Shown piece after piece: positions 24,945 to 38,219 of a DNA stretch of 64,000 bases (positions are counted from its first letter, which is position 1; each line of letters begins with the position of its first letter). The notes below the pieces were generated by a model that saw only the letters and a list, made by a program, of their open reading frames with translations, made no database searches and had not been told where the DNA came from. The stretch covers positions 2,954 through 66,953 of the forward strand of contig MNDT01000061.1 in the NCBI GenBank assembly GCA_001915065.1, given 5' to 3'. This DNA comes from an archaeon 13_2_20CM_2_53_6. GTDB taxonomy: Archaea > Thermoproteota > Bathyarchaeia > 40CM-2-53-6. Position numbers and translations under genes: made by a program.

Positions 24945-25155
24945 AAAGCCCTGATCGGCAATCAGGGAGGGGGGTCCCACTGAGCAACTTATTCACGCTT
25001 GAAGGGCCCTCACCAACACGTACTGGAAAACGCTGATCAGCCCGTTCTACGCGTCAAATCGGAAATTTCGCCCAATTCTGTTTCAGATGGCCAGACGACC
25101 CATCCAGGATTTAGAAATAAAAAAATTCCCGCGACACAAGAGTGCTCTCTGGAGT
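24945..25155 (-). repeat. Inverted copy of the orc1 upstream promoter/leader element (34-bp perfect core at 25106-25139)
   Basis: The reverse complement of 24945-25155 aligns to 36113-36330 at roughly 80% identity, including the exact 34-mer ttgtgtcgcgggaatttttttatttctaaatcct. Confidence 0.7.
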
Positions 25156-27728: not shown

Positions 27729-28157
27729 CTACCGCTTCCTCACCAGGTGATGGGCCTTTACATACTCGTCGACGTGAGACCTGCTCCTAAACACGCCACC
27801 CTTGGCCAAGGCGAGCAGAGTCTTGTAGCCGCCAGGAGCTAGCTGTCTCTTGTCTCTAAGCCAGCGTAGATGGCGGCGGATCGCTCGTATTTTGAGAACC
27901 CAGGCCTCCTTGCCAGGCTTCTGGCCGCCCTTACGGCTCCCCGCCCCCTTACGCCGGCCAGACCGAGCCCTCACGCGTCCTCTGCTGACCCCTGTCTTCG
28001 GTAGCAAGCTTATGCTCCCCTCGCGGATAAGCTTCTTGACCTCGTCGCGCGTTATCGCCGACTGAACCCGATCGATATCTTCAGGGTCGATCCAGACCCT
28101 GTTCAAGCCTCCACCCAGAAGATCAGCGGCGAGTCTCCTCTGGCTCTTGAGGCTCAT
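27729..28157 (-). CDS. rpl19e: 50S ribosomal protein L19e (eL19)
   Basis: SLKSQRRLAADLLGGGLNRVWIDPEDIDRV...IRAIRRHLRWLR. Confidence 0.85.
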   Translation of the reverse strand: MSLKSQRRLAADLLGGGLNRVWIDPEDIDRVQSAITRDEVKKLIREGSISLLPKTGVSRGRVRARSGRRKGAGSRKGGQKPGKEAWVLKIRAIRRHLRWLRDKRQLAPGGYKTLLALAKGGVFRSRSHVDEYVKAHHLVRKR

Positions 28158-28642
28158 TCAGAATCCTCTCCGGTCACAGACTCCTCTTCGCCATCCTCGG
28201 CAACCTCGACTTGTTCAGTTGGCTCCTCAACTGGAGTTTCAGTAGGGACAGGTTCCCTTTCCTCGACCCTCTCAGCTACTGGTCGACTCTCTCCCTTTCC
28301 AGGGTTTGCGATATGAAAATTCTGCTCTTTCGCCTTGGCGACGATCCCTATCCGCTTTCTCTCGCCAACCCGCGCGGCGATCCTGATGATGTGTATCTTC
28401 GCATCGAGCTTCTCGAGTTCTGACTCGCGCCACACGAGATGTTCGACCAGCCCTCTGGGATGGAGGCCTCTCGCGGATGCGATGGATCCGTACCCCACCT
28501 TTACTTTCGGAGGGAACCCGCTCTCCTCCTTCCGCATCTTACTCGTGACCCCACGCGGTCGACGCCAGTTTTCCGCCACTCTCCTGTACCGCCAGCTCTC
28601 CTGGCGCTTGAATTCGGGCTTTGAACTCTTCATCATTCTCAC
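28154..28642 (-). CDS. rpl32e: 50S ribosomal protein L32e (eL32) with acidic C-terminal tail
   Basis: KPEFKRQESWRYRRV...WRRPRGVTSKMR. Confidence 0.8.
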   Translation of the reverse strand: MRMMKSSKPEFKRQESWRYRRVAENWRRPRGVTSKMRKEESGFPPKVKVGYGSIASARGLHPRGLVEHLVWRESELEKLDAKIHIIRIAARVGERKRIGIVAKAKEQNFHIANPGKGESRPVAERVEEREPVPTETPVEEPTEQVEVAEDGEEESVTGEDSE

Positions 28643-29130
28643 TTTGACGGGCTATGCGGCGAATGCGCGGGCCCTTTTGCGGAGATGTAGATTCCGTCCA
28701 GGAAGACCCGCAGATCCTTCTCCTTGATCCTGGTGCTATCCTGAATATTCGCAGCCGTCTGGCTTACAGATTTCAGGTCTACCCCTTCAACTGATATGTC
28801 ATCGCCCTTGATGGCAACTTTCACTCCTTCCAGGATCCTCGCGTATCTGGGGGTTTTCTCGCCTGTGAAGTTCTCGATCTTCAAGACCTTCGCCTTCTCG
28901 TCCACTTTGACGGTTACTGGAAAGTGGGCGTAGACCGTCCGCAGATCGTACTTGTAGCCCTGCGTGACCCCTTTGATCATGTTTCTGACATGGGCGGCGG
29001 CGGTTCCCAGCATTCCAATCTCTCGCTTCCGCGGCCACACGGTCTGTAGCCGGACCTGGTTCTGTTCGACGCTGAGTGAGACTGGCAGGTGTGAAAGGTC
29101 CTCGACGAGGGCGCCTAGTGGGCCCTTCAC
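28639..29130 (-). CDS. rpl6p: 50S ribosomal protein L6 (uL6); N-terminus probably extends upstream of the called GTG
   Basis: Two L6 repeats. The in-frame upstream sequence (to ~29215) encodes ...VPENVSVQIEGRIVKVKGPLGAL, which matches the L6 N-terminal strand, but no ATG/GTG/TTG is available there. Confidence 0.8.
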   Translation of the reverse strand: MKGPLGALVEDLSHLPVSLSVEQNQVRLQTVWPRKREIGMLGTAAAHVRNMIKGVTQGYKYDLRTVYAHFPVTVKVDEKAKVLKIENFTGEKTPRYARILEGVKVAIKGDDISVEGVDLKSVSQTAANIQDSTRIKEKDLRVFLDGIYISAKGPAHSPHSPSK

Positions 29131-29224
29131 TTTTACAATTCGGCCCTCTATTTGTACGCTGACGTTTTCTGGTACCTGAAGGGTTCTCTGAAGAGTCTCA
29201 AATCGTGCCGTGGATCCTCGCCCT

Positions 29225-29608
29225 CTAGAAGACGTATCCGAGGAGTTGTCCGCCTGAGCCCGCTTCGCGTGCCTCTTTGTGTGCCAAGACTCCTTTCGGG
29301 GTTGTCAGTATGAGGATGCCGACATCTCGCGAGGGAAGGTATCGTCTGCCCCATTTTTCGAATTCGCCTATTGTGGTGGAGAATCTTGGTCGTACGCTGC
29401 CGCAGTTGTTGACCCGTCCTAGGAGCTGGATCTTGAATTTTCCTCCTCTGCCGTCGTCCACGAACTCGAACTCTCCCACGTAGCCATATTTCTGCATGAC
29501 CCGGAGAACCTGGCCCATCAGTTTGGATGCGGGATAGACGATACACTCGTGCTTGTGTCTCCGCTCGTTGTTGAGGATGGATGAGAACATGTTTGATATT
29601 GGTTCCAT
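29225..29608 (-). CDS. rps8p: 30S ribosomal protein S8 (uS8)
   Basis: ISNMFSSILNNERRHKHECIV...GGQLLGYVF. Confidence 0.85.
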   Translation of the reverse strand: MEPISNMFSSILNNERRHKHECIVYPASKLMGQVLRVMQKYGYVGEFEFVDDGRGGKFKIQLLGRVNNCGSVRPRFSTTIGEFEKWGRRYLPSRDVGILILTTPKGVLAHKEAREAGSGGQLLGYVF

Positions 29609-29770
29609 GAGTTGTCACATGTATTTCTTGAACCCGAGGCCTACTGCTACTTCTCTGAAGCATTGTCTGCAAAAGTTGAGCCCGTATTTTCTAACGATGG
29701 GACCGTATTGGCCGCATCGTTTGCAGGGGCGAGCACCCTTCCCATACTTCCGCTGTTTCCTTGGTTTGAT
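29606..29770 (-). CDS. rps14p: 30S ribosomal protein S14 type Z (uS14, zinc-binding), 54 aa
   Basis: Not in the ORF track because it is under 60 aa. Translates to [54 protein letters not shown], with the CxxC...CxxC motif. Lies between rpl5 and rps8 as in the canonical operon. Confidence 0.8.
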
Positions 29771-29786
29771 CTTGGCCATGTCCGGT

Positions 29787-30326
29787 TCAGCTTGCTATGT
29801 TTGTGCCGAAGTTGTTCTGCATGAACGTTACTGCTTCCGCCCGCGACACGTAGTGGTTGTGCCCTATCTTGGCCGGGCGTATTCCGCGCGATCTGATCCG
29901 GTATCCCGGGCGTCCCAGAGTGACGTGAATGGTTGCTCCGAATATTCCCAGCTCGGGGACGTACCTGGTTCCGGGGATCTCGATATGCTCCTTGATTCCG
30001 AAGGAGAAGTTGCCGAACTGGTCGAAGCTGGACTCGTTGACTTTGTTGCTGACAGCGTCTAGGGCTCTTCTCAAGAATTCGCCTGCGTCTTTTCCCCTGA
30101 GCGTGACGACCGCGGCTATTGGTTCTCCCTTTCTCACTCCAAAGTCCTTGATGGCTTTTTTCGCCTTCTTTGTTGCTGGGGTCCTTGCGGTCAGCTGGTT
30201 GAGAACTTTCTTCGCCTTTTCTAAGGGTTCCCCAGATTTGCCTGTCGCTATGTTCAGGGTGACCTTCTCGATCCTTACAACGCGTAAGGGATTACTCACT
30301 TCATCGTCACCTTTGGGTTTGGACAC
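29787..30326 (-). CDS. rpl5p: 50S ribosomal protein L5 (uL5)
   Basis: [21 protein letters not shown]...[11 protein letters not shown]. Confidence 0.85.
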
Positions 30327-30327
30327 C

Positions 30328-31077
30328 CTACTGTTTTCCTAGCCCGATGAGAGGTGTTCCCATGCCAATAGGTATCACGTAGGCTGCGGGGGTCTCGAAT
30401 GCCTCGTCAGTCGTCTCGATCCTAACTCCCTTCCGACGCGCGTGGGTTCCTGGTGTTATTGAGAAGATCTTGCCGAAGTGTCCTTGGTTTCGTCCATCGA
30501 CGACGAGTCCGATAGCTCCCGTCTGGAATGGGATGTGGCCCACTATGTTTTGTTCGGGGAGTCCTAGTTGTATTGCGCCTCCAACTGCGTACTCCTCCCC
30601 AGGTCTCTGTCTTGGCTCGCGAGCTTGAAGAATTAGGTTGCGCCCGTCGTGAAAGTTGAGCTGGGTCCGGCCGCCTTCAACGGTTTTCTTTCCAACTATC
30701 TTGCAGAGCTTGAATCCGGACTCTCCCTTTTCGATGGGTACGGTGGTCAGTCCTTTGTCGGGTCTGGGTAGAACCCGGAAGCTCTGGGGGGATCCCTCGA
30801 TCTGTAGCACGTCCATTAGGCCTACTGGGAATCTATGGTCTCTTCGGACGACTCCGTCGACTTTGACTCTGCCAGTACTGATGATGTGGATCGCCTCTTT
30901 CGCGGTTCTTGCGTATCCCAGGATTTCACGTATGACGATGACGAGTGGGAGGCTTCTATCGCGACGATGCGGACCAGGTCTGGTCATGGGTGCCCAGGCC
31001 ATTTCCTTTCGGTGTATCGGCCAGAATCCTGGGGCTGGTTCTCGTTTCAGCTGTCTGGGTCCAGATTTTCTCGCCAC
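30328..31077 (-). CDS. rps4e: 30S ribosomal protein S4e (eS4)
   Basis: S4 and KOW domains; HRRDRSLPLVIVIRE...GRVKVDG. Confidence 0.85.
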   Translation of the reverse strand: MARKSGPRQLKREPAPGFWPIHRKEMAWAPMTRPGPHRRDRSLPLVIVIREILGYARTAKEAIHIISTGRVKVDGVVRRDHRFPVGLMDVLQIEGSPQSFRVLPRPDKGLTTVPIEKGESGFKLCKIVGKKTVEGGRTQLNFHDGRNLILQAREPRQRPGEEYAVGGAIQLGLPEQNIVGHIPFQTGAIGLVVDGRNQGHFGKIFSITPGTHARRKGVRIETTDEAFETPAAYVIPIGMGTPLIGLGKQ

Positions 31078-31080
31078 TTT

Positions 31081-31452
31081 CTATTCCTCCGCGCTCTTTG
31101 CCTTCTCGGACAATATTCCGCTCCGCCACTTGTCGGATAGGTTCAGTTCGGTAATGAGCACCTTGCTGGAATGTACTGGAAGCTTTGATGAGACCCCCGC
31201 GGCCTTTTCTCGTGTCATTCCTTCGACGAAGATCCTTCCGGTAGAATATTCCACTCGCTCGACTTTTCCTTCAAGTCCTGCGAATTCTCCCCGCATTATG
31301 CGTACTCTGTCGCCGGTTCTGAGTGGGACCCGTCTGATTCTGTGTCTACCGGTCAGATCGTTTGAGAGTCGAGCTGAGAGCCTTCTCCGTTGTCTGTGCT
31401 TCGGTGCCTGGAAGAGGAGTTTTCTCTGTTTTGACGGCTTTGAGCTTCTCAT
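31081..31452 (-). CDS. rpl24p: 50S ribosomal protein L24 (uL24)
   Basis: KOW motif (RTGDRVRIMRGEFAGLEGKVERV). Confidence 0.85.
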   Translation of the reverse strand: MRSSKPSKQRKLLFQAPKHRQRRRLSARLSNDLTGRHRIRRVPLRTGDRVRIMRGEFAGLEGKVERVEYSTGRIFVEGMTREKAAGVSSKLPVHSSKVLITELNLSDKWRSGILSEKAKSAEE

Positions 31453-31455
31453 TCT

Positions 31456-31854
31456 CTATATCACTGTCGAGGCTAGATTGGCTACTCTGGGCCATCTCTC
31501 TGCGGCTTCGCGCGCGACTGGTCCTCTGATCTCTGTTCCTTTCATTTCTCCCTCGGGCGTCATGATTACGGCGGCGTTGTCCTCGAAGGAGAGTCGCGTG
31601 CCGTCGGGCCTTCGCAATGCTCTTGCCTGTCTGACAACTACCGCTGGAAAGACTTGTTTCCTAAGATCGGGGGCACCCTTGGTGACTGAGACCATTATCA
31701 TATCTCCGACGCAGGCGGCCGGTACTCTGCGGAGGCGTCCGTGGTATCCTCGTACGTTTATCAGCTTCAGCTCTTTTGCTCCGGTGTTGTCCGCGCAGGT
31801 CATCCGGGAGCCGACTGGTAGGCCTCTGGCGATTCTTGGCCTGTATTCGACCAT
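31456..31854 (-). CDS. rpl14p: 50S ribosomal protein L14 (uL14)
   Basis: [20 protein letters not shown]...VVRQ. The internal Met at 31854 gives the canonical ~133-aa length; the ORF-track start at 31959 overlaps rps17. Confidence 0.85.
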
Positions 31855-31895
31855 TCCACGGGCGCTGACGGCCCTCGTCTTCGGTGCTGGCATGT

Positions 31896-32231
31896 CTACT
31901 CTGCCACTCCCTTTCTGTCGATCACTACAAAGGAGACTTCCTTGCTGAGCGGTCGGCACTCAGCGATTGTCACGTGATCGCCTGTCGTTGCGGATATGCA
32001 TGGGGGGTTGTGGGCTAGGGTCTTGCTCCTGCGCCGCTCGTACCGGTTGTATTTCGGATAATAGTGGAGATAGGCTCGTTCTACAGAGACCGTTCTTGGG
32101 GATTTTGAAGTTGAGACCGTTCCTTCGAAGACTCTTCCCCTGACGGAGACGTTCCCATGGTAGGGGCATGCAGGATCGTTGCATCCGGATTTTGGCGGTT
32201 TGACGTCTAGTCCGATGTTGCGTACTACCAT
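31896..32231 (-). CDS. rps17p: 30S ribosomal protein S17 (uS17)
   Basis: OB fold: [45 protein letters not shown]. Confidence 0.8.
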
Positions 32232-32506
32232 CTGCTCAGCCCTTTCTTTATTCTGTCTTCTGGCCGGTGCTTCAGCATACTTCCTTCAACTGTCATGGTT
32301 TCTCCTGTCGGCAGCTTGGCGATGAATACGGTGTTGGGTTTTGCGATTCTGCGAGTCCTCCCATGTGTCTCTACGACCAGTGTATTCCTTGTCTCGTCTC
32401 GAACGAGTCCGGAGAGACCCTCCAGTTTCGTATCTGGACTTTTCTTAATGGTGATTTCGAGGCCTATCCATTCGTGTGCTAGAATGTTCCGGGAAGTGAT
32501 CGGCAT
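32225..32506 (-). CDS. rnp1: RNase P protein component 1 (Rpp29/Pop4 homolog)
   Basis: Sm-like barrel motifs (IGLEITIKKS...GLVRDETRNTLVVETHGRTRRIAKPNTVF) and the conserved archaeal position between rpl29 and rps17. Confidence 0.65.
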   Translation of the reverse strand: MPITSRNILAHEWIGLEITIKKSPDTKLEGLSGLVRDETRNTLVVETHGRTRRIAKPNTVFIAKLPTGETMTVEGSMLKHRPEDRIKKGLSRW

Positions 32507-32509
32507 CTA

Positions 32510-32722
32510 CTACGCTTTCTCCGTTGGGGCTTTGAGGTTCTGGGCGGTGAGGAGTCTTGCTATGGCCCGGCGTAGTTCTCTTACTCTGGCCGGGTTGTCG
32601 ACTGTGCCGCCGGAGTTCACCTGGGTTCGGATTGTGGTGAGCTCGGCTCTCAGTTCTGAGACTTTCTTTTCCCGTTCCTCGGGAAGCATCTGTCCTATCT
32701 CACGCTTGCGTAGGATTGCCAA
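32510..32722 (-). CDS. rpl29p: 50S ribosomal protein L29 (uL29)
   Basis: 70-aa helical protein, LSELRAELTTIRTQ...ARLLT. Confidence 0.8.
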   Translation of the reverse strand: MAILRKREIGQMLPEEREKKVSELRAELTTIRTQVNSGGTVDNPARVRELRRAIARLLTAQNLKAPTEKA

Positions 32723-33407
32723 CTGTTGCCTCCTCCTTCTCTGTTTCGACTTCCGGGGCCGAGGGAGCTGGTACTGACACTTCCGTTATGACTGGTTGTG
32801 CTACCGCCGCTGCGACTATCTTCATCGTGGGCTTGTCGACAAAGTTGATGTTGGGGGGTAGGATTCGGACCTTTATCCCGAAGAGTCCTTGCTTTAGCTG
32901 GACGTCCGTTACGGCGACCTTCACGCTCTTGAGGACTGGGTCTCCGACCCGTGGGAGGTATCCGGCTCTGAACTTCTCGTATCTGGCGCGTTCGGTTGTG
33001 AGTTTTCCTCTGATAATGATCTCTACTCCTAGGGCTTGTGATTCCATGACTCTCTGTATTGCCCAGTAGGCGGATCTTCTGAAGTGGACTCCGCGCTGGA
33101 GGGCCTGGGCGACCTGGGAGGCGACTACCTTCGGGTCTTGTTCTGGGATTTCGATGGCTGCTACGGATAGCTGGGCATTCTCTATGCCGAATTTTGTCTC
33201 GAGGAGTTTTGTGAGATCTTTTATGCTCTGGCCTCTTCGGCCTATGACCATCCCGGGTTTTGCCGCGTAGATTACGACGCGGGTTCCGACGGGGCTTTTT
33301 GTGAGTTCTACGTGGCTGTATCCTGCTCGTTTGAGATCGTTCTGGAGTAGTTCGTCGATCTCGAGTCGGCGGGATACGTCTTTGATGAAGTATTTGGTTA
33401 CTGACAT
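32700..33407 (-). CDS. rps3p: 30S ribosomal protein S3 (uS3)
   Basis: KH domain (GMVIGRRGQSIKDL) plus the S3 C-terminal domain. Confidence 0.9.
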   Translation of the reverse strand: MSVTKYFIKDVSRRLEIDELLQNDLKRAGYSHVELTKSPVGTRVVIYAAKPGMVIGRRGQSIKDLTKLLETKFGIENAQLSVAAIEIPEQDPKVVASQVAQALQRGVHFRRSAYWAIQRVMESQALGVEIIIRGKLTTERARYEKFRAGYLPRVGDPVLKSVKVAVTDVQLKQGLFGIKVRILPPNINFVDKPTMKIVAAAVAQPVITEVSVPAPSAPEVETEKEEATVGNPTQA

Positions 33408-33411
33408 GGGG

Positions 33412-33879
33412 CTATTCTGCCTCGAAGCCGACCAGTTCGATGTGGGTGGTTGTTGCTTTTAGGAGGTCTGAGCGTCCGAAGGCTCTCGGGTTGCGTCTCG
33501 GGATCTTGTTTGCGCGCTGGGCGGCTGCGTGTATTATCTTGAGCCGTTCAGTATCCAAGTTACGGTATTCGGCGTTTGCTTCGAGCTCTTCTAGTAGGCG
33601 GAGGAGTCTGCCGGCTGCTTTCTGCGGGAATCTTCCGGCGAACCATGGTTCGGTGAGCTGTCTCCGGTGTGGGACTTCTTTCTTGTAGTGTCGGTATGCT
33701 ATAGCCTGTTTCTTCTCGACTACTCGTTCTAGAAGTTTTTTCGCGTCGGAGAGTTTCATTCCTCTGATTGTTCTGCAGATCTCGACTGATGCTTTGGGGG
33801 ATATTCTGAGTTGTCGGCCTGAACATTTTACCGTCCGGTCTGGGTCGAGGCCTGTTATCGAGTATCCCCGTTCAGGCAT
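33412..33879 (-). CDS. rpl22p: 50S ribosomal protein L22 (uL22)
   Basis: SPKASVEICRTIRGMKLSDAKKLLERV...IELVGFE. First gene of this truncated operon. Confidence 0.85.
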   Translation of the reverse strand: MPERGYSITGLDPDRTVKCSGRQLRISPKASVEICRTIRGMKLSDAKKLLERVVEKKQAIAYRHYKKEVPHRRQLTEPWFAGRFPQKAAGRLLRLLEELEANAEYRNLDTERLKIIHAAAQRANKIPRRNPRAFGRSDLLKATTTHIELVGFEAE

Positions 33880-34047
33880 CCACTGTCACGAAGGTTGGGA
33901 TTGCGGGTTGGCTTGCCCTAAAAAGGTTCCTTGGTCTCGAGTCGAGTATCGTGGCTTGAGGTCGTCGCGTGTCGTTGTTACTTCTACGGTTCGGGACTGG
34001 TTACTCTAGTCTTATTGTCGGTGTTTCCTGCTTTCGAGCGGGATATT

Positions 34048-34851
34048 ATGGCAGAGTCAGTTGCTATCGAAAGGGTCCACACTGGAATCCCTGGCCTGGA
34101 CCACGTGCTTGAGGGAGGTTTCCCGAAGGGCGCGAGGGTCTTATTGGCTGGGGGGGCTGGCTGTGGGAAGACCATCTGTTGCGGCCAGTATCTGTACAAG
34201 GGCGCTACGCGCTACGGTGAGCCAGGTGTCTATGTCTCGACTGAGGAGCCTCCGCAGGAGTTCAGAGCGAACATGCTCCGTTTCGGCTGGGATTTCAAGA
34301 AGCTTGAGGCGGAGCGGAAGATCGGTATGGTCGATGCTGTCTATCAGCGTGTCGAGACGGAGATCGCGGAGCAGGAGTCGTTGCAGTCGATACTGTACAA
34401 TCTCCGGTCGAAACTGTCTGAGGTGAAGATTCTCGTTGAGCAGCTTGGCGCGACGAGGCTGGTTGTGGATTCGCTTCCCGGTTTTGGTTTCCGGGTGACG
34501 GATCTCAACACGCTGCGAGAGATCTTCCTCGAGGTCGGGCTGCTGTTGAAGGATGTTGGCTGTACGACCTTGATGACGACGGAGATCGTTGAGGGCTCGG
34601 GATTGATCAGCCGCTATGGCATCGAGGAGTTCCTCGCTACCGGGGTGATGGTCCTCTCGCTGGTCCGGCAGTCCTCGGTTATCCGGAAGGTGTATGTCCG
34701 GAAGATGCGTGGGACGAGTCACAGCCTGAACGACTTTGCGTTCACCATCGGCCGTGAGGGTGTCGAGCTGAAGGGGCCGATTGGTGTTCGTAGTGTTAGC
34801 CGACAACGACGCCTCCATAGTCCGCGGAGAAAGCGTCGAAGCCGGCGCTGA
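34048..34851 (+). CDS. KaiC-like RecA-superfamily ATPase (single KaiC domain), intact Walker A
   Basis: GIPGLDHVLEGGFPKG, Walker A GGAGCGKT, Walker B RLVVDSL. The ATG at 34048 is preferred over the ORF-track TTG at 33931. Confidence 0.7.
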   Translation: MAESVAIERVHTGIPGLDHVLEGGFPKGARVLLAGGAGCGKTICCGQYLYKGATRYGEPGVYVSTEEPPQEFRANMLRFGWDFKKLEAERKIGMVDAVYQRVETEIAEQESLQSILYNLRSKLSEVKILVEQLGATRLVVDSLPGFGFRVTDLNTLREIFLEVGLLLKDVGCTTLMTTEIVEGSGLISRYGIEEFLATGVMVLSLVRQSSVIRKVYVRKMRGTSHSLNDFAFTIGREGVELKGPIGVRSVSRQRRLHSPRRKRRSRR

Positions 34852-34987
34852 CACGTACGAAGAAGCCGAGTCGGGGACTGTTCCAGTATCCGAGGTGGGG
34901 AGGGTAGTGGAACAAGGGGTTCAAGGACAAGGGACGGCTATCGACCAGCTAGGCTGGACGGGCCAGCGACGACAGGTGTGATCTAGA

Positions 34988-35701
34988 ATGGTGCAGAATT
35001 TGAAGAGCGGGATCTCAGCGTTCGACGAGTCACTGGGCGGTCTGCCCGGCGGGAGTATTATCCTGTTTCTCGGCGAGGCTGATACGGGGATGACGACGTG
35101 TGCGCAGCAGATAATGTACCAAGGCTTGCTGGATGGTCGGCCGGCTGTCTATTTCACTACGGGCCGGTCTTGGGAGGATATTGTCGGGGAGATGGGTGTG
35201 TACGGCTGGACACTGGAACGGTTCTTTGAGCAGCGGAAAATGTGGTTCATTGACAGTTTCGGGATGAAACGGGAGAAGGTGGCGGGGGAGGTTAGCTGGG
35301 ATATTGGTCCGGCGAATCTCTTGGCGAAGGAGTTTCCACGGGTTGTTGCGCCATTGGGGGCCTGTACGCTTATTGTGGATAGCTTGAGTGATGTGATTCG
35401 TAGTGCTCCTTTTCCGGCGGTCGAGCAGACCTTGAAGCTGTTACAAGCTCATGTGCGGGCTAGCGGGGGATTGTATGTTCTAATGGCGAACAAGGGGATT
35501 CACACTGATCATATCGAGAATACGGTGAAGCACTTGAGTGATGGCGTTGTTGATCTTTCTACGGAACCGTTCGGGTCTGAGGATTATGCGCGTAAGATGC
35601 GCGTGTTGAAGATGCCGGGCGCGTTCACGGACATGAAAGTCTACGCTTACCGGGTCGGCGCGGCGGGTATCGAGATGGCGGCGTTGCATAGGGTGCGATA
35701 A
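34988..35701 (+). CDS. KaiC-like RecA-fold protein with a degenerate Walker A (GEADTGMT); probably a non-catalytic partner
   Basis: KaiC-domain blocks (GISAFDESLGGLPGGSIILFLGE...LIVDSLSD), but the Walker A Lys/Ser position is replaced. Confidence 0.6.
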   Translation: MVQNLKSGISAFDESLGGLPGGSIILFLGEADTGMTTCAQQIMYQGLLDGRPAVYFTTGRSWEDIVGEMGVYGWTLERFFEQRKMWFIDSFGMKREKVAGEVSWDIGPANLLAKEFPRVVAPLGACTLIVDSLSDVIRSAPFPAVEQTLKLLQAHVRASGGLYVLMANKGIHTDHIENTVKHLSDGVVDLSTEPFGSEDYARKMRVLKMPGAFTDMKVYAYRVGAAGIEMAALHRVR

Positions 35702-35705
35702 GAAA

Positions 35706-36044
35706 ATGCTGACGGACGTTGCTGTTTTGCCGACGCAGGTGTCTGGTACGACGAGTTTTGGTTTGACGAAGCCGAGGATGTCTGAAGAGGAGATCTTCCG
35801 GATACTCACGACCACTGAGGTGAATATTCAGATTGTTCGGATTTGTGAGACTCCGCGGAGTGCGCGTGAGATTGCGCGGGGGTTGGGTGAGGTCTATCCT
35901 GGTCATAAGGAGAAGGGGTTTCCGCCGGACAAGCTGGGCGAGCATCTGGCGAATCTGGAACGGTTGGGGGCTGTCAAGTTTAACGGTGAGAAGTGGGCTG
36001 CGAGCGATGTGGGCGTGAAGATGGTCAAGAAATACTTCGGCTAG
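35706..36044 (+). CDS. Winged helix-turn-helix protein (putative regulator of the KaiC-like operon)
   Basis: IVRICETPRSAREIARGLG...LERLGAVKFNGEKW is a wHTH pattern. The start is 5 nt after the upstream stop; an internal Met at 35778 is an alternative. Confidence 0.4.
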   Translation: MLTDVAVLPTQVSGTTSFGLTKPRMSEEEIFRILTTTEVNIQIVRICETPRSAREIARGLGEVYPGHKEKGFPPDKLGEHLANLERLGAVKFNGEKWAASDVGVKMVKKYFG

Positions 36045-36082
36045 ACACGAAGACGGATTGGATTAGAAGAACCGTATCTTTC

Positions 36083-36210
36083 TATCGCGGGGATCTTTCC
36101 CAAAGAGCACGTTTGTGTCGCGGGAATTTTTTTATTTCTAAATCCTAGAGAGTGTCGTCTCGCCATCTGAAACAGAATTGCGCGAAATTCCCGGTTTGTC
36201 GCGCAGAACA
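36083..36210. promoter_or_regulatory. Candidate replication-origin / promoter region upstream of orc1: inverted cgggaattt motifs flanking an A/T-rich stretch
   Basis: tcgcggggatc (36086), tcgcgggaattt (36117) and the inverted gcgcgaaattcccgg (36181) bracket the A/T-rich 36127-36180. The sequence gggaatttttttatttctaaa also resembles an archaeal BRE/TATA element. Confidence 0.35.
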
Positions 36211-36330
36211 GGCTTATCGGCTGTTTTCAGTAGTTGCCGTGTGGCGGCCTCCAAGCGTGCGAAACCCGCCGCGTGGGACCCCACTCCCGGATCGCTGATC
36301 AGGGCTTATTCTGGGGCGATTTGCCGGATC
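36113..36330 (+). repeat. orc1 upstream promoter/leader element (copy 2; 34-bp perfect core at 36113-36146)
   Basis: See copy 1 at 24945-25155. Similarity extends ~185 bp downstream of the core (gtcgtct.gccatctgaaacagaattg.gcgaaatt... through ...gatcagggctt). Confidence 0.7.
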
Positions 36331-36467
36331 GGATATGCTATCTTTTCTACTCCGAAAAGTAGTATGGTCTCGGCTGTTTTTCTGCCCTGCTCCTCTCCCG
36401 GAGAGTTTACTTTCGCCCCTCTCTGCTCATCTTATACGTTCAACAGTACAGTTTAGGAGCTTACACG

Positions 36468-37706
36468 GTGGAAGTAATCAAAGTGCAGAAGAACAGCCTA
36501 GCCGCACCCGGCGAGATCGTCCGAGAAGCGCTCTCCAAACCAACCATATTCAAGAACGAAGAGCCGCTCAGCCTAGAGTGGCTGCCGCCCCGCCTCCCAC
36601 ACCGGGAGACCCAGCTACGCTTCCTAACAGAACTCTTCCGATCCGTCATAGACAAGCCCGGAACCACCAGCCCGAAGGTCCTGATAACCGGAGAGATCGG
36701 AACAGGAAAGACTGTTCTGACGCAACGGTTCGGGATGGACATTCAACGCACCGCCCGGACACTGAAGCAGAACCTCCAGTACATCCACGTCAACTGTCGC
36801 GAGTTCCGCGGCAGCCTCTTCATGATCCTCAAACAGGTACTGCAGAAGTTCACCCCGCAGTTTCCCCAGCGCGGATTCTCCAGCGAAGAACTCTTGCATA
36901 TACTGCTGGACCAGCTGGAGACGAAGAACCTCCACATTATTCTCACACTAGACGAGGCCGATGTCCTGATCGCCGCGGAAGGATCAACAAGCCTCTACAA
37001 CCTGACGCGTATTCAGGAGGAGCGGCCCGGTCGTCCCATACGACTGTCGCTGATAGTGGTACTGCGCGAGATAGAGAAGCTACAGGATCTCGATAGGAGT
37101 ACGCAGAGCACACTGCAGCGGAACCTGATACGGCTCGACCGGTACTCGGCCAGCCAGCTGGAATCGATCCTCAGAGAACGAGTAGAGCTGGCGTTCAAGG
37201 AAGGGACGATATCAGAACAGGTCGTGGATTTCGTGGCGGACATGGCGGCGCCGGCAGGCGATGCGAGATACGCGATCGAACTGGTCTGGCGCGCTGGAAA
37301 ATATGCTGATACTGAAGGGTCGCGGGAGGTCCGGGCGGAGCATGTCCGGGCCGCGGCCCAGAGCGTCTACCCGGTGATGAGGACAGACTACGCCCAGCAC
37401 CTGAACCTGCACGAAAAGCTGCTACTCCTGGGCCTTGCTAGGACCTTGGAGCGGACACAGGAGACGTACGCGTCGATGGGCGAGAGTGAGATAGCCTACA
37501 AGATGGCGTGCGAGGAGTACAAGGAACAGTTCAGAGCGCATACCCAGGTCTGGAAGTATGTCCAGAACCTCAGCGCCACGGGAATAGTCTCGACCCAGCC
37601 CTCGACCGCGGGGTTCAGAGGAAAGACGACGCTGCTGGGACTGCCCACAGCCCCGGCCTCGGCGATACGACGATGGCTAGAGTCGAGCCTAGTACGCAGG
37701 CCCTAA
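36468..37706 (+). CDS. orc1: Orc1/Cdc6 replication initiator (AAA+ plus C-terminal winged helix)
   Basis: Walker A GEIGTGKT, Walker B LTLDEADVL, sensor motifs, and a C-terminal wH. GTG start. Confidence 0.85.
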   Translation: MEVIKVQKNSLAAPGEIVREALSKPTIFKNEEPLSLEWLPPRLPHRETQLRFLTELFRSVIDKPGTTSPKVLITGEIGTGKTVLTQRFGMDIQRTARTLKQNLQYIHVNCREFRGSLFMILKQVLQKFTPQFPQRGFSSEELLHILLDQLETKNLHIILTLDEADVLIAAEGSTSLYNLTRIQEERPGRPIRLSLIVVLREIEKLQDLDRSTQSTLQRNLIRLDRYSASQLESILRERVELAFKEGTISEQVVDFVADMAAPAGDARYAIELVWRAGKYADTEGSREVRAEHVRAAAQSVYPVMRTDYAQHLNLHEKLLLLGLARTLERTQETYASMGESEIAYKMACEEYKEQFRAHTQVWKYVQNLSATGIVSTQPSTAGFRGKTTLLGLPTAPASAIRRWLESSLVRRP

Positions 37707-37713
37707 CAGGACC

Positions 37714-38019
37714 TTGCCCCAGAAAGCCTCGCTCGCAAATGTCCTCTCCAGCAGCGGCAGAATCAAGATACTGACCGTCCTCTCCAACGTGGGAGAGCTG
37801 CACCTTAGCGAGATTGCGAGGAAGACTGACCAGAGCTACAGCGCCACCGATCGACATTTACAAGAACTGTCGGAGGCCTCGATTGTCGAGGAGCACGATT
37901 ATGGACGGGTCCGAATGTTTAGGCTGAACTTGGAAAATCCGCGGGCGAAGATCCTGCGACAATTGATCCTCGAATGGGACAACAGTACGAATCCGAGAAT
38001 GATCGACGGACAGGTTTAA
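37714..38019 (+). CDS. ArsR-family wHTH transcriptional regulator
   Basis: RIKILTVLSNVGELHLSEIARKTDQSYSATDRHLQELSEASIV is a typical ArsR/SmtB HTH. Confidence 0.6.
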   Translation: MPQKASLANVLSSSGRIKILTVLSNVGELHLSEIARKTDQSYSATDRHLQELSEASIVEEHDYGRVRMFRLNLENPRAKILRQLILEWDNSTNPRMIDGQV

Positions 38020-38027
38020 ACTACAAT

Positions 38028-38219
38028 ATGATCGAGACTAGTTCAGACCTGGCCAGAATGACAAAGTGCGACAAGTGCGGCAAAGAGACAAAACAGAACA
38101 AACAGTGCGAATACTGCGGAAAGACGTTCTGCGAAGAACATATGCCTGACCACCAAGCATGGGAGCACCGCCACGAGACCCTGGCCCAAGACGAGTCCAG
38201 ACTCTGGAAAAGACGATAA
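38028..38219 (+). CDS. Small zinc-finger protein (AN1-like C-x2-C...C-x2-C...C-x2-H)
   Basis: CDKCGKETKQNKQCEYCGKTFCEEHMPDHQAWEH. Confidence 0.4.
   Translation: MIETSSDLARMTKCDKCGKETKQNKQCEYCGKTFCEEHMPDHQAWEHRHETLAQDESRLWKRR

Follow-up and report, generated by a model that had tools for sequence, protein, structure and literature searches.

The window analyzed here, a 64,000-nucleotide stretch of contig MNDT01000061.1 from the archaeon 13_2_20CM_2_53_6 (Bathyarchaeia), carries at positions 34048-36044 a cluster of three genes encoding two KaiC-domain proteins, which we call KaiC1 and KaiC2, and a small protein, ORF3. With a probability of about 0.55, we favor a lineage-specific regulatory module of soil Bathyarchaeia, in which a KaiC-family ATPase and an inactivated KaiC domain (iKaiC) act with a membrane-tethered winged helix-turn-helix (wHTH) partner. 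The cluster is a new, lineage-restricted case of the known, functionally uncharacterized archaeal KaiC/iKaiC modules. The positions of the open reading frames (ORFs) confirm the three plus-strand genes of a preliminary description made from the letters alone. The cluster and its immediate context are as follows.

34048..34851, + strand: KaiC1, predicted active single-domain CI-type KaiC-family ATPase, 267 residues, read from an ATG
34852..34987, + strand: KaiC1-KaiC2 spacer, with conserved blocks, a Shine-Dalgarno (SD)-like site and an open +1 frame
34988..35701, + strand: KaiC2, inactivated KaiC-domain protein (iKaiC), 237 residues
35706..36044, + strand: ORF3, small protein of predicted wHTH fold, 112 residues, a shortened variant of a protein of about 150 residues
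33412..33879, - strand: rpL22, first gene of the ribosomal-protein (r-protein) operon, divergent from KaiC1 (context)
36468..37706, + strand: orc1/cdc6, NCBIfam NF001623, 354 bits against a cut-off of 311 (context)

Both KaiC-domain assignments made in that description were borne out by profile searches. Against Pfam PF06745 (KaiC, RecA superfamily; gathering score 26.6, profile length 231), KaiC1 scored 219 bits (E 7e-65) and KaiC2 97.8 bits (E 8e-28), each over the full domain from profile position 1-2 to 226-227. KaiC1 carries the intact Walker A (GGAGCGKT, residues 35-42, 34150-34173) and Walker B (RLVVDS, residues 137-142, 34456-34473) already noticed, to which we add the catalytic Glu pair within VSTEE (residues 63-67, 34234-34248) and an Arg-finger motif of the K-x-R-G type (KMRGTSH, residues 219-225, 34702-34722). 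With all four elements present, KaiC1 is, judged by its motifs, a catalytically competent member of the KaiC family.

The closest PDB matches of KaiC1 overall are the designed KaiC proteins 8zn5, 8zn6 and 8zn7, and its best natural solved relative is PH0186 (2zts), matched over the whole length with E 2e-59. PH0186 and PH0284 (2dr3) from Pyrococcus horikoshii are, like KaiC1, stand-alone KaiC domains of about 250 residues in which both Walker motifs are intact and the Glu pair and a YGIEEF motif are present; unlike them, KaiC1 has an Arg-rich tail, a dedicated dead paralog and a wHTH partner. The cut-off of 307 for thermo_KaiC_1 (TIGR03877), a family linked to PH0284, was not reached by KaiC1 (145.4) or KaiC2 (56.9). 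In every alignment to cyanobacterial KaiC, the CI half, which shares with KaiC1 the catalytic set and a Glu-Glu where CII has its phospho-sites, scored best (about 1e-50, far better than the CII half). The Glu-Glu of YGIEEF aligns to the CII phospho-sites S431/T432 (3s1a; IST in other CII domains). KaiC1 is thus predicted to be a CI-type ATPase domain and no obvious autokinase, and given its Glu-Glu, any signaling would probably go through its nucleotide state and not through canonical Ser/Thr phosphorylation.

The C-terminal tail of KaiC1 (34783..34848, residues 246-267, RSVSRQRRLHSPRRKRRSRR) has Lys or Arg at 11/22 residues and an isoelectric point (pI) of 12. This basic tail is kept in the clade, and the 74%-identical homolog P0208 likewise has an Arg-rich tail, which supports the annotated KaiC1 frame as real. 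It has no aligned counterpart in PH0186, PH0284 and the other solved relatives, which align only to about residue 250. Such a tail could bind nucleic acid or an acidic partner.

Motif conservation in KaiC2 was assessed over 17 homologs that are 74-90% identical. The degenerate Walker A reported beforehand is real: the P-loop site reads GEADTGMT (35072-35095), with the P-loop Lys lost. Residues G29, E30, D32, T33, G34 and T36 are invariant, M35 is nearly so (Leu in 1/17) and position 31 is variable; this invariance across the homologs excludes a sequencing error. The proposal that KaiC2 is non-catalytic also stood, and two further losses that had been missed add to it. First, in FTTGRS (35153-35170) a Gly-Arg replaces the catalytic Glu-Glu (Gly-His in 1/17 homologs). 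Secondly, K-M-P-G replaces the K-x-R-G Arg finger in KMPGAF (35609-35626), invariant in 17/17. The Walker B is kept, including its Asp (TLIVDS, 35366-35383), so that three of the four catalytic elements, the P-loop, the Glu pair and the Arg finger, are missing. A Lys-His stands at the position equivalent to the CII phospho-site pair. With its fold kept, its catalytic residues lost and 108 positions invariant across the 17 homologs, KaiC2 is an iKaiC.

The ancestry of KaiC2 was followed with a profile search covering 1.84 billion representative proteins, which returned one full-length family representative and then a tail of proteins 26-32% identical. WD.G..N.L, GMHD, H.ADGV and, at the C-terminus, ETA.RI are motifs common to these distant relatives, most of which combine a dead P-loop (GPPGSGFS, GNPGTGHS, GEPGSGYD and others) with a broken Glu pair. 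KaiC2 is 31% identical to iKaiC proteins of other archaea (138 bits) versus 27% to KaiC1 (67 bits). Being nearer to foreign iKaiC proteins than to its neighbor, it comes from an old pseudo-ATPase lineage and not from a recent copy of KaiC1. KaiC2 matched DUF7125 and DUF7504 below threshold, with no MEDS or DUF835 match at E <= 0.01. It aligns best to the CI half of KaiC and is not CII-like. An AlphaFold2 (AF2) model built from the 17-sequence alignment, of low predicted local distance difference test score (pLDDT 56), still retrieves KaiC CI, PH0284 and PH0186. The idea of a split double-domain KaiC, put forward in the preliminary description, was abandoned: both proteins align to the CI half, and KaiC2 belongs with the older iKaiC lineage.

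Selection was estimated by the Nei-Gojobori method over 16 loci (15 for ORF3 and 11 for orc1). The dN/dS ratios were 0.029 for KaiC1, 0.054 for KaiC2 and 0.028 for ORF3, compared with 0.030 for rpS3, 0.039 for rpL22 and 0.083 for orc1. These low values, near those of rpS3 and rpL22, indicate that KaiC1, KaiC2 and ORF3 are all functional. Across the clade, KaiC1 is 88-99% identical, versus 72-99% for rpL22.

Gene order was compared over 21 soil Bathyarchaeia loci, each counted where the relevant flank is retained; individual loci and proteins are designated below by L and P numbers. The close homologs all come from soil metagenomes and from metagenome-assembled genomes named Candidatus Bathyarchaeota or Bathyarchaeia, the nearest relative being isolate BA_12 (contig VBBG01000039; 97-99% amino-acid identity). 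In every flank-retaining locus, rpS3-rpL22 on the minus strand stands beside KaiC1-KaiC2-ORF3 on the plus strand in the same order, so the arrangement is not due to chance. The window's rpL22 is 81% identical to the syntenic gene of L001, which carries PF00237 (Ribosomal_L22). As had been described, the cluster diverges from rpL22, the two starts lying 168 nucleotides (nt) apart; KaiC1 and KaiC2 are separated by 136 nt, KaiC2 and ORF3 by 4 nt, and ORF3 and orc1 by 423 nt. The adjacency to rpL22 is kept, but within one clade only. Outside this clade, the KaiC/iKaiC pair never adjoins translation genes in the loci examined.

The distance from the KaiC2 stop to the ORF3 start is 4-6 nt in the window, L001, L004 and eight near-identical contigs. 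The gap of 4 nt fits translational coupling, and ORF3 is probably coupled to KaiC2 in this way. The small wHTH gene had been placed 5 nt after KaiC2; the gap needs this correction, and the fold itself was supported at moderate confidence. ORF3 matched no family in Pfam or NCBIfam. Its AF2 model, built with 19 homologs, reached a pLDDT of 70.8 and a predicted template modeling score (pTM) of 0.61, with the order H-H-H(-H)-H-beta-beta-H. A Foldseek search of the PDB ranked mostly wHTH proteins at the top (RosR, Csa3, TubR, SmtB/ArsR, MarR; template modeling scores 0.5-0.63, E-values generally about 1e-2), the best example being RosR 6qfd with a score of 0.63 and E 9e-3; further down the ranking come T4 MotA and methyltransferases as well.

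The homologs of ORF3 are confined to the same clade and are about 150 residues long at full length. They begin with about 20 hydrophobic residues, followed by RRRR or RRHR and then by a Gly/Pro/Ser linker. This pattern, of borderline hydrophobicity, is the expected signature of an N-terminal membrane anchor with a cytoplasmic wHTH domain. The wHTH partner would thus normally be membrane-anchored, and the window copy is a deletion variant. Exactly 123 nt (41 codons) are missing from it in frame, with the junction at 35729/35730. Alignment to L004, L006 and L009 identifies the missing segment, QFDGVFGLLENAGFLWALLIGTWGALSYSFLRRHRNGPKVG, as the hydrophobic helix with its RRHR flank. The anchor segment is kept in L004 and in the eight near-identical contigs L027-L034, and the deletion is unique to the window. 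The Kyte-Doolittle (KD) maximum falls accordingly from 1.55 in a full-length homolog to 0.78 in the window ORF3, which lacks the anchor feature that its relatives show. The in-frame loss predicts a soluble wHTH protein in the window, and the deletion may represent either a genuine allele of this soluble kind or an artifact of assembly.

KaiC-like ATPases and their inactivated homologs have been proposed as archaeal signaling hubs (Makarova 2017, as reported in PMC5847659 and PMC10983859), and inactivated KaiC domains are an established concept in archaeal signaling (Makarova, Galperin and Koonin 2017, as reported in PMC5847659). The pairing, which had been called unusual, is therefore not so in kind, to the extent that PMC5847659 reports this work. 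According to the same account, the iKaiC domains of archaeal signaling include MEDS and DUF835-type proteins; KaiC2 resembles them in having dead motifs under selection beside an active KaiC, and differs from them as a stand-alone domain that matches PF06745.

The KaiC2 lineage also lies directly beside an active, KaiC1-like KaiC in two other contexts, L035/L038-L040 and L043-L044, with the following gene content.

L035, 32-5992, and L038-L040, 1-7496: giant CLIPPER-repeat protein, protein of 133-144 residues, iKaiC, KaiC, metallo-beta-lactamase
L043 island: MEDS-PAS-HisKA kinase, receiver protein, GvpD-like KaiC, iKaiC-KaiC pair, DUF7504/DUF7090 KaiC, KaiC-GTPase fusion

In the first context, the KaiC (P0230, NCBI label 'Methanomicrobia archaeon') is 41% identical to KaiC1, the protein of 133-144 residues looks coiled coil-like by eye, and in L038-L040 a Pilin_N/PKD protein also follows the metallo-beta-lactamase. 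The latter matches the anti-Pycsar Apyc1 family, and the index lists 59 blocks of the sequence collection for the P0230 KaiC. The KaiC that comes after the iKaiC in L043 and L044 shares 37% identity with KaiC1 (E 4e-59), and the pair adjoins a receiver protein, a GvpD-like KaiC and one more KaiC paralog. L043 (1-7756; GCA_046760505.1) is a dense KaiC signaling island, whose MEDS-PAS kinase and several KaiC paralogs bring the locus of a KaiC2 relative close to the published iKaiC setting.

These operons and the window have the same two protein lineages side by side, the operons pairing an iKaiC 31% identical to KaiC2 with a KaiC 37-41% identical to KaiC1, but in reversed order, the iKaiC coming first. 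The third partner there is the coiled coil-like protein or none, whereas the window clade has a protein with a putative transmembrane helix and a wHTH domain; the neighbors there are surface proteins or two-component signaling genes, whereas those of the window are r-protein genes and orc1. Elsewhere, a KaiC2 relative occurs with no paired KaiC (L037), L045 has genes for a Pilin_N protein and a prepilin peptidase after its iKaiC, and more distant KaiC1 homologs can stand solo (L025, L041). A dedicated pair of active and dead KaiC proteins is supported by this recurrence.

From these elements we derive a working model of the module. KaiC1 would be its engine and, by homology, would form a ring that binds ATP and hydrolyzes it slowly. 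KaiC2 would be a non-catalytic partner, hydrolyzing no ATP and supplying no Arg finger. It could bind KaiC1 as a capping ring, as a stacked ring or as interspersed subunits, and would read or modulate the nucleotide state of KaiC1 and act as an adaptor. Since KaiC2 has no Arg finger, a ring in which the two proteins alternate would disable the KaiC1 sites; capping, stacking or sub-stoichiometric incorporation of KaiC2 is at least as likely. ORF3, made together with KaiC2 by translational coupling, would be the partner of KaiC2. Normally, its hydrophobic helix and RR(H)R stretch would tether a cytoplasmic winged-helix domain to the membrane, and this domain, by binding DNA or protein, would provide output or docking. 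The direction of signaling and its target are, like the ring, the hetero-oligomer suggested in the preliminary description and the KaiC1-KaiC2 and KaiC2-ORF3 contacts, what we infer.

Several points weigh against this regulatory module. Its architecture is uncertain, given that an alternating hetero-hexamer would inactivate the KaiC1 sites, and the protein contacts, the ATPase activity and the signal are all predicted. No sensor domain (PAS, GAF, V4R etc.) lies in or beside the Bathyarchaeia cluster, unlike in typical KaiC signaling islands. The models are limited, that of KaiC2 being poor (pLDDT 56) and that of ORF3 moderate only (pLDDT 71, Foldseek E about 1e-2). The putative recognition helix of ORF3 is not notably basic and the pI of its domain is 7.9, which leaves DNA binding putative. 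Finally, the KD value of 1.55 for the full-length anchor is borderline for a transmembrane helix.

The spacer between KaiC1 and KaiC2 contains conserved blocks within 34859-34926, among them CCAGTATCC at 34883-34891 and GGTAGTGGAACAAGGGGTTCAAGG at 34903-34926, and an SD-like AGGTGTGATC at 34974-34983 ahead of KaiC2. The +1 frame relative to KaiC1 (34781-34981) is open in 21/21 loci, reaching back 53 nt or more from the KaiC1 stop and forward to 0-18 nt from the KaiC2 start (52 nt in L011), although the frame of KaiC2 relative to KaiC1 differs between loci. Two results are suggestive of coding. In shuffled sequences, a frame this open arises with a per-locus probability of 0.06-0.25, and across the 66-nt block 34859-34924 the entropies of the three codon positions in the +1 frame are 0.47/0.50/0.74, the third position varying more. 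Three observations count against a coding +1 frame: part of the conserved block is invariant even at synonymous sites, the pN/pS of the whole spacer is 0.71 (NG86, three frames compared), and two loci have no start codon before the conserved motif. A structured RNA element was unsupported as well, since a consensus fold over 13 loci gave seven weak pairs with no covariation. The +1 frame may encode a disordered acidic peptide, reached by frameshifting or unusual initiation, or the block may be a regulatory DNA or RNA element.

A bolder reading, to which we give little credence, joins a switch for a membrane-tethered transcription factor with a KaiC1 made in two forms. On the switch side, the KaiC/iKaiC pair may control whether the anchored winged-helix protein is able to act, and the anchor-less allele of the window may be a natural 'constitutively released' variant. 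On the other side, KaiC1 may exist with its basic tail and also as a longer product, to which a +1 frameshift into the conserved open frame running to the KaiC2 start would add about 45 acidic and Gln-rich residues. If true, either the membrane-tethered switch or the two-form KaiC1 would be without described precedent among KaiC-family proteins.

Among the alternatives to a regulatory module, an accessory ATPase for a surface or type IV pilus-like structure survives best, although we consider it unlikely. The pair would then be membrane-proximal, as KaiC-like ArlH acting on ArlI is in the archaellum, and ORF3 would be a membrane dock and not a transcription factor. The surroundings of the pair in other archaea agree with this, with the giant CLIPPER-repeat protein in L035 and L038-L040, the additional Pilin_N/PKD protein in L038-L040, and the Pilin_N protein and prepilin peptidase that follow the iKaiC in L045, as does the hydrophobic N-terminal segment that normally anchors ORF3. 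ArlH and CirA of Haloferax, precedents for KaiC-like control of motility structures, resemble KaiC1 and KaiC2 as single-domain KaiC-like proteins with nucleotide-dependent regulation of another machine. However, both proteins score far below the ArlH cut-off of 215 (NF052589; 37.9 for KaiC1 and 48.2 for KaiC2), and the neighbors are r-protein genes and orc1, with no arl genes nearby. Moreover, ArlH is an ATP-binding protein that phosphorylates itself, while the P-loop Lys is missing from KaiC2. No pilin, secretion ATPase or prepilin peptidase appears in the L001-L003 Pfam gene tables, the other Bathyarchaeia loci having been checked for the window's own flanking genes only. Finally, the window ORF3 has lost its anchor, yet KaiC1, KaiC2 and the rest of ORF3 are intact.

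A role as recombination or replication mediators of the RadA-paralog type (aRadC or Rad55-Rad57-like) is a still weaker candidate. The active protein and its dead partner would act on DNA as a heterodimer, with DNA contacts made by the basic KaiC1 tail and by the wHTH domain, and proximity to orc1 and the origin would have a functional meaning. Both KaiC proteins belong to the RecA superfamily, JGI labels homologs 'KaiC/GvpD/RAD55 family RecA-like ATPase', and the RadA paralog SSO2452 (aRadC, 2w0m) is matched by KaiC1 with E 1e-19 and by the KaiC2 profile with E 1e-16. Like the cluster, Rad55-Rad57 and aRadC comprise pairs of RecA-superfamily paralogs in which one partner is catalytically dispensable. 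The Arg-rich tail of KaiC1, orc1 located 423 nt downstream (and adjacent in the closest subclade) and origin recognition box (ORB)-like repeats around the AT-rich stretch 36079-36194 also fit this role. Against it, KaiC1 is far nearer to KaiC CI and PH0186 (1e-50 to 2e-59) than to SSO2452 or archaeal RadA (E 5e-3 for the latter), the usual ORF3 partner is predicted to be membrane-anchored, and no link to repair or replication is conserved: adjacency to orc1 is gone in much of the clade, no replication or repair genes lie beside the pair outside it, and no repair genes adjoin it in any locus examined.

The preliminary description had placed the cluster about 400 bp upstream of orc1, in agreement with the measured 423 nt and with an orc1 gene that passes NF001623, and had linked the cluster to a candidate origin. 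Adjacency to orc1 is limited to the closest subclade (the window, L004, L006-L008, L018, L020, L024 and L028-L032). In L010 and L012-L017, orc1 is 6-7 kb from the cluster; in L009, it is inverted and about 4.5 kb away; in L001-L003, it is absent within about 5.5 kb of the cluster. The origin link did not hold across the loci compared: the neighborhood of rpL22 with KaiC1-KaiC2-ORF3 is kept wherever flanks are present, but the orc1 adjacency is not. The 6-7 kb of extra genes between ORF3 and orc1 (e.g. L010 9200-15800) may be an insertion relative to the window.

The ORF3-orc1 spacer has TCGCGGGRAT-type repeats, two direct (36079-36098 and 36112-36131) and one inverted and partial (36184-36194), which flank the AT-rich stretch upstream of orc1 in a manner resembling an ORB and a DNA unwinding element (DUE). 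When the ORB-like TCGCGGGRATYTTT was searched in relatives, the repeat pair was found in the near-identical L028 and single copies in L004 and L006; it was absent from the more distant relatives searched. The minus strand has one more TCGCGGGRAT-type copy, at 25121. Assignment of this spacer as an origin is plausible from its repeats. The position of the cluster beside it is local synteny and no evidence of function.

Two kinds of observation around orc1 may be recorded here. First, orc1 is followed by an ArsR-type wHTH gene (37714-38019) and an overlapping ORF of 81 residues (37974-38219), Cys-rich and by eye a possible Zn ribbon. This trio (36468-38219) travels together in L006, L008, L018 and L024, and also, inverted and displaced, in L009. 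Secondly, the AT skew is -0.26 to -0.39 across the r-protein operon and positive after 36 kb (28000-38000 of the window), and the cumulative GC skew is lowest at about 30-32 kb; the switch in gene orientation, and possibly an origin close by, would fit these skews. On the other flank, the r-protein operon (minus strand, 30328-33879) begins with rpL22, with KaiC1 upstream and the same break in all relatives. In archaea, rpl3-rpl4-rpl23-rpl2-rps19 usually precede rpL22; these genes are not upstream of the window's rpL22, and KaiC1 takes their place.

A circadian-like role, with the cluster as a minimal KaiC-type timer or hourglass oscillator, is very improbable and largely refuted. KaiC1 is strongly similar to cyanobacterial KaiC, but KaiC1 and KaiC2 are single domains of 267 and 237 residues against two tandem domains of about 500 residues, so that KaiC1 has no linked second domain, and it carries Glu-Glu in place of the Ser/Thr phospho-pair at the CII S431/T432 positions. 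Scores against TIGR02655/NF006799 (cut-offs 408/546) were 183.9/133.2 for KaiC1 and 65.1/42.1 for KaiC2. No KaiB- or KaiA-family gene was found in scans of the window's five genes or in the L001-L003 Pfam tables, and no KaiB-sized ORF was seen by eye in the immediate flanks of the window. The reading of KaiC2 as a functionless tandem copy of KaiC1 in decay, which the tandem genes, the common domain and its lost catalytic residues might suggest, is refuted by its purifying selection (dN/dS 0.054), by the 108 invariant positions in 17 homologs, which include G, E, D, T, G and T of the degenerate P-loop, and by its closeness to iKaiC proteins of other classes rather than to KaiC1.

Scans of broader scope added little. 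Rfam gave zero matches over the whole 64-kb window, in which no KaiC paralog was found besides KaiC1 and KaiC2. A defense-system reading was dropped after the PADLOC models gave no meaningful match. A scan for sigma-70 promoters and terminators returned counts at shuffle level, its consensus not being relevant to archaea.

KaiC-like ATPases and dead paralogs abound in archaeal genomes and are suspected to form a major archaeon-specific signaling system, but almost none of these proteins has a known partner or output. The organism is uncultivated, and nothing in the locus contradicts current expectations. As a probable KaiC/iKaiC regulatory module, this locus is an unusually clean minimal case: it joins an active KaiC to a dead one and a single small winged-helix protein, and the three genes are conserved to about the same degree as rpS3 and rpL22. 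The predicted membrane anchor of the wHTH partner, the deletion allele of the window and the recurrent active/dead pairing are its noteworthy details. As the active/dead pair recurs in unrelated archaea with other partners, it offers a defined unit for reconstitution, in which the dead subunit may cap the active ring, stack on it or be interspersed within it, and may recruit other components.

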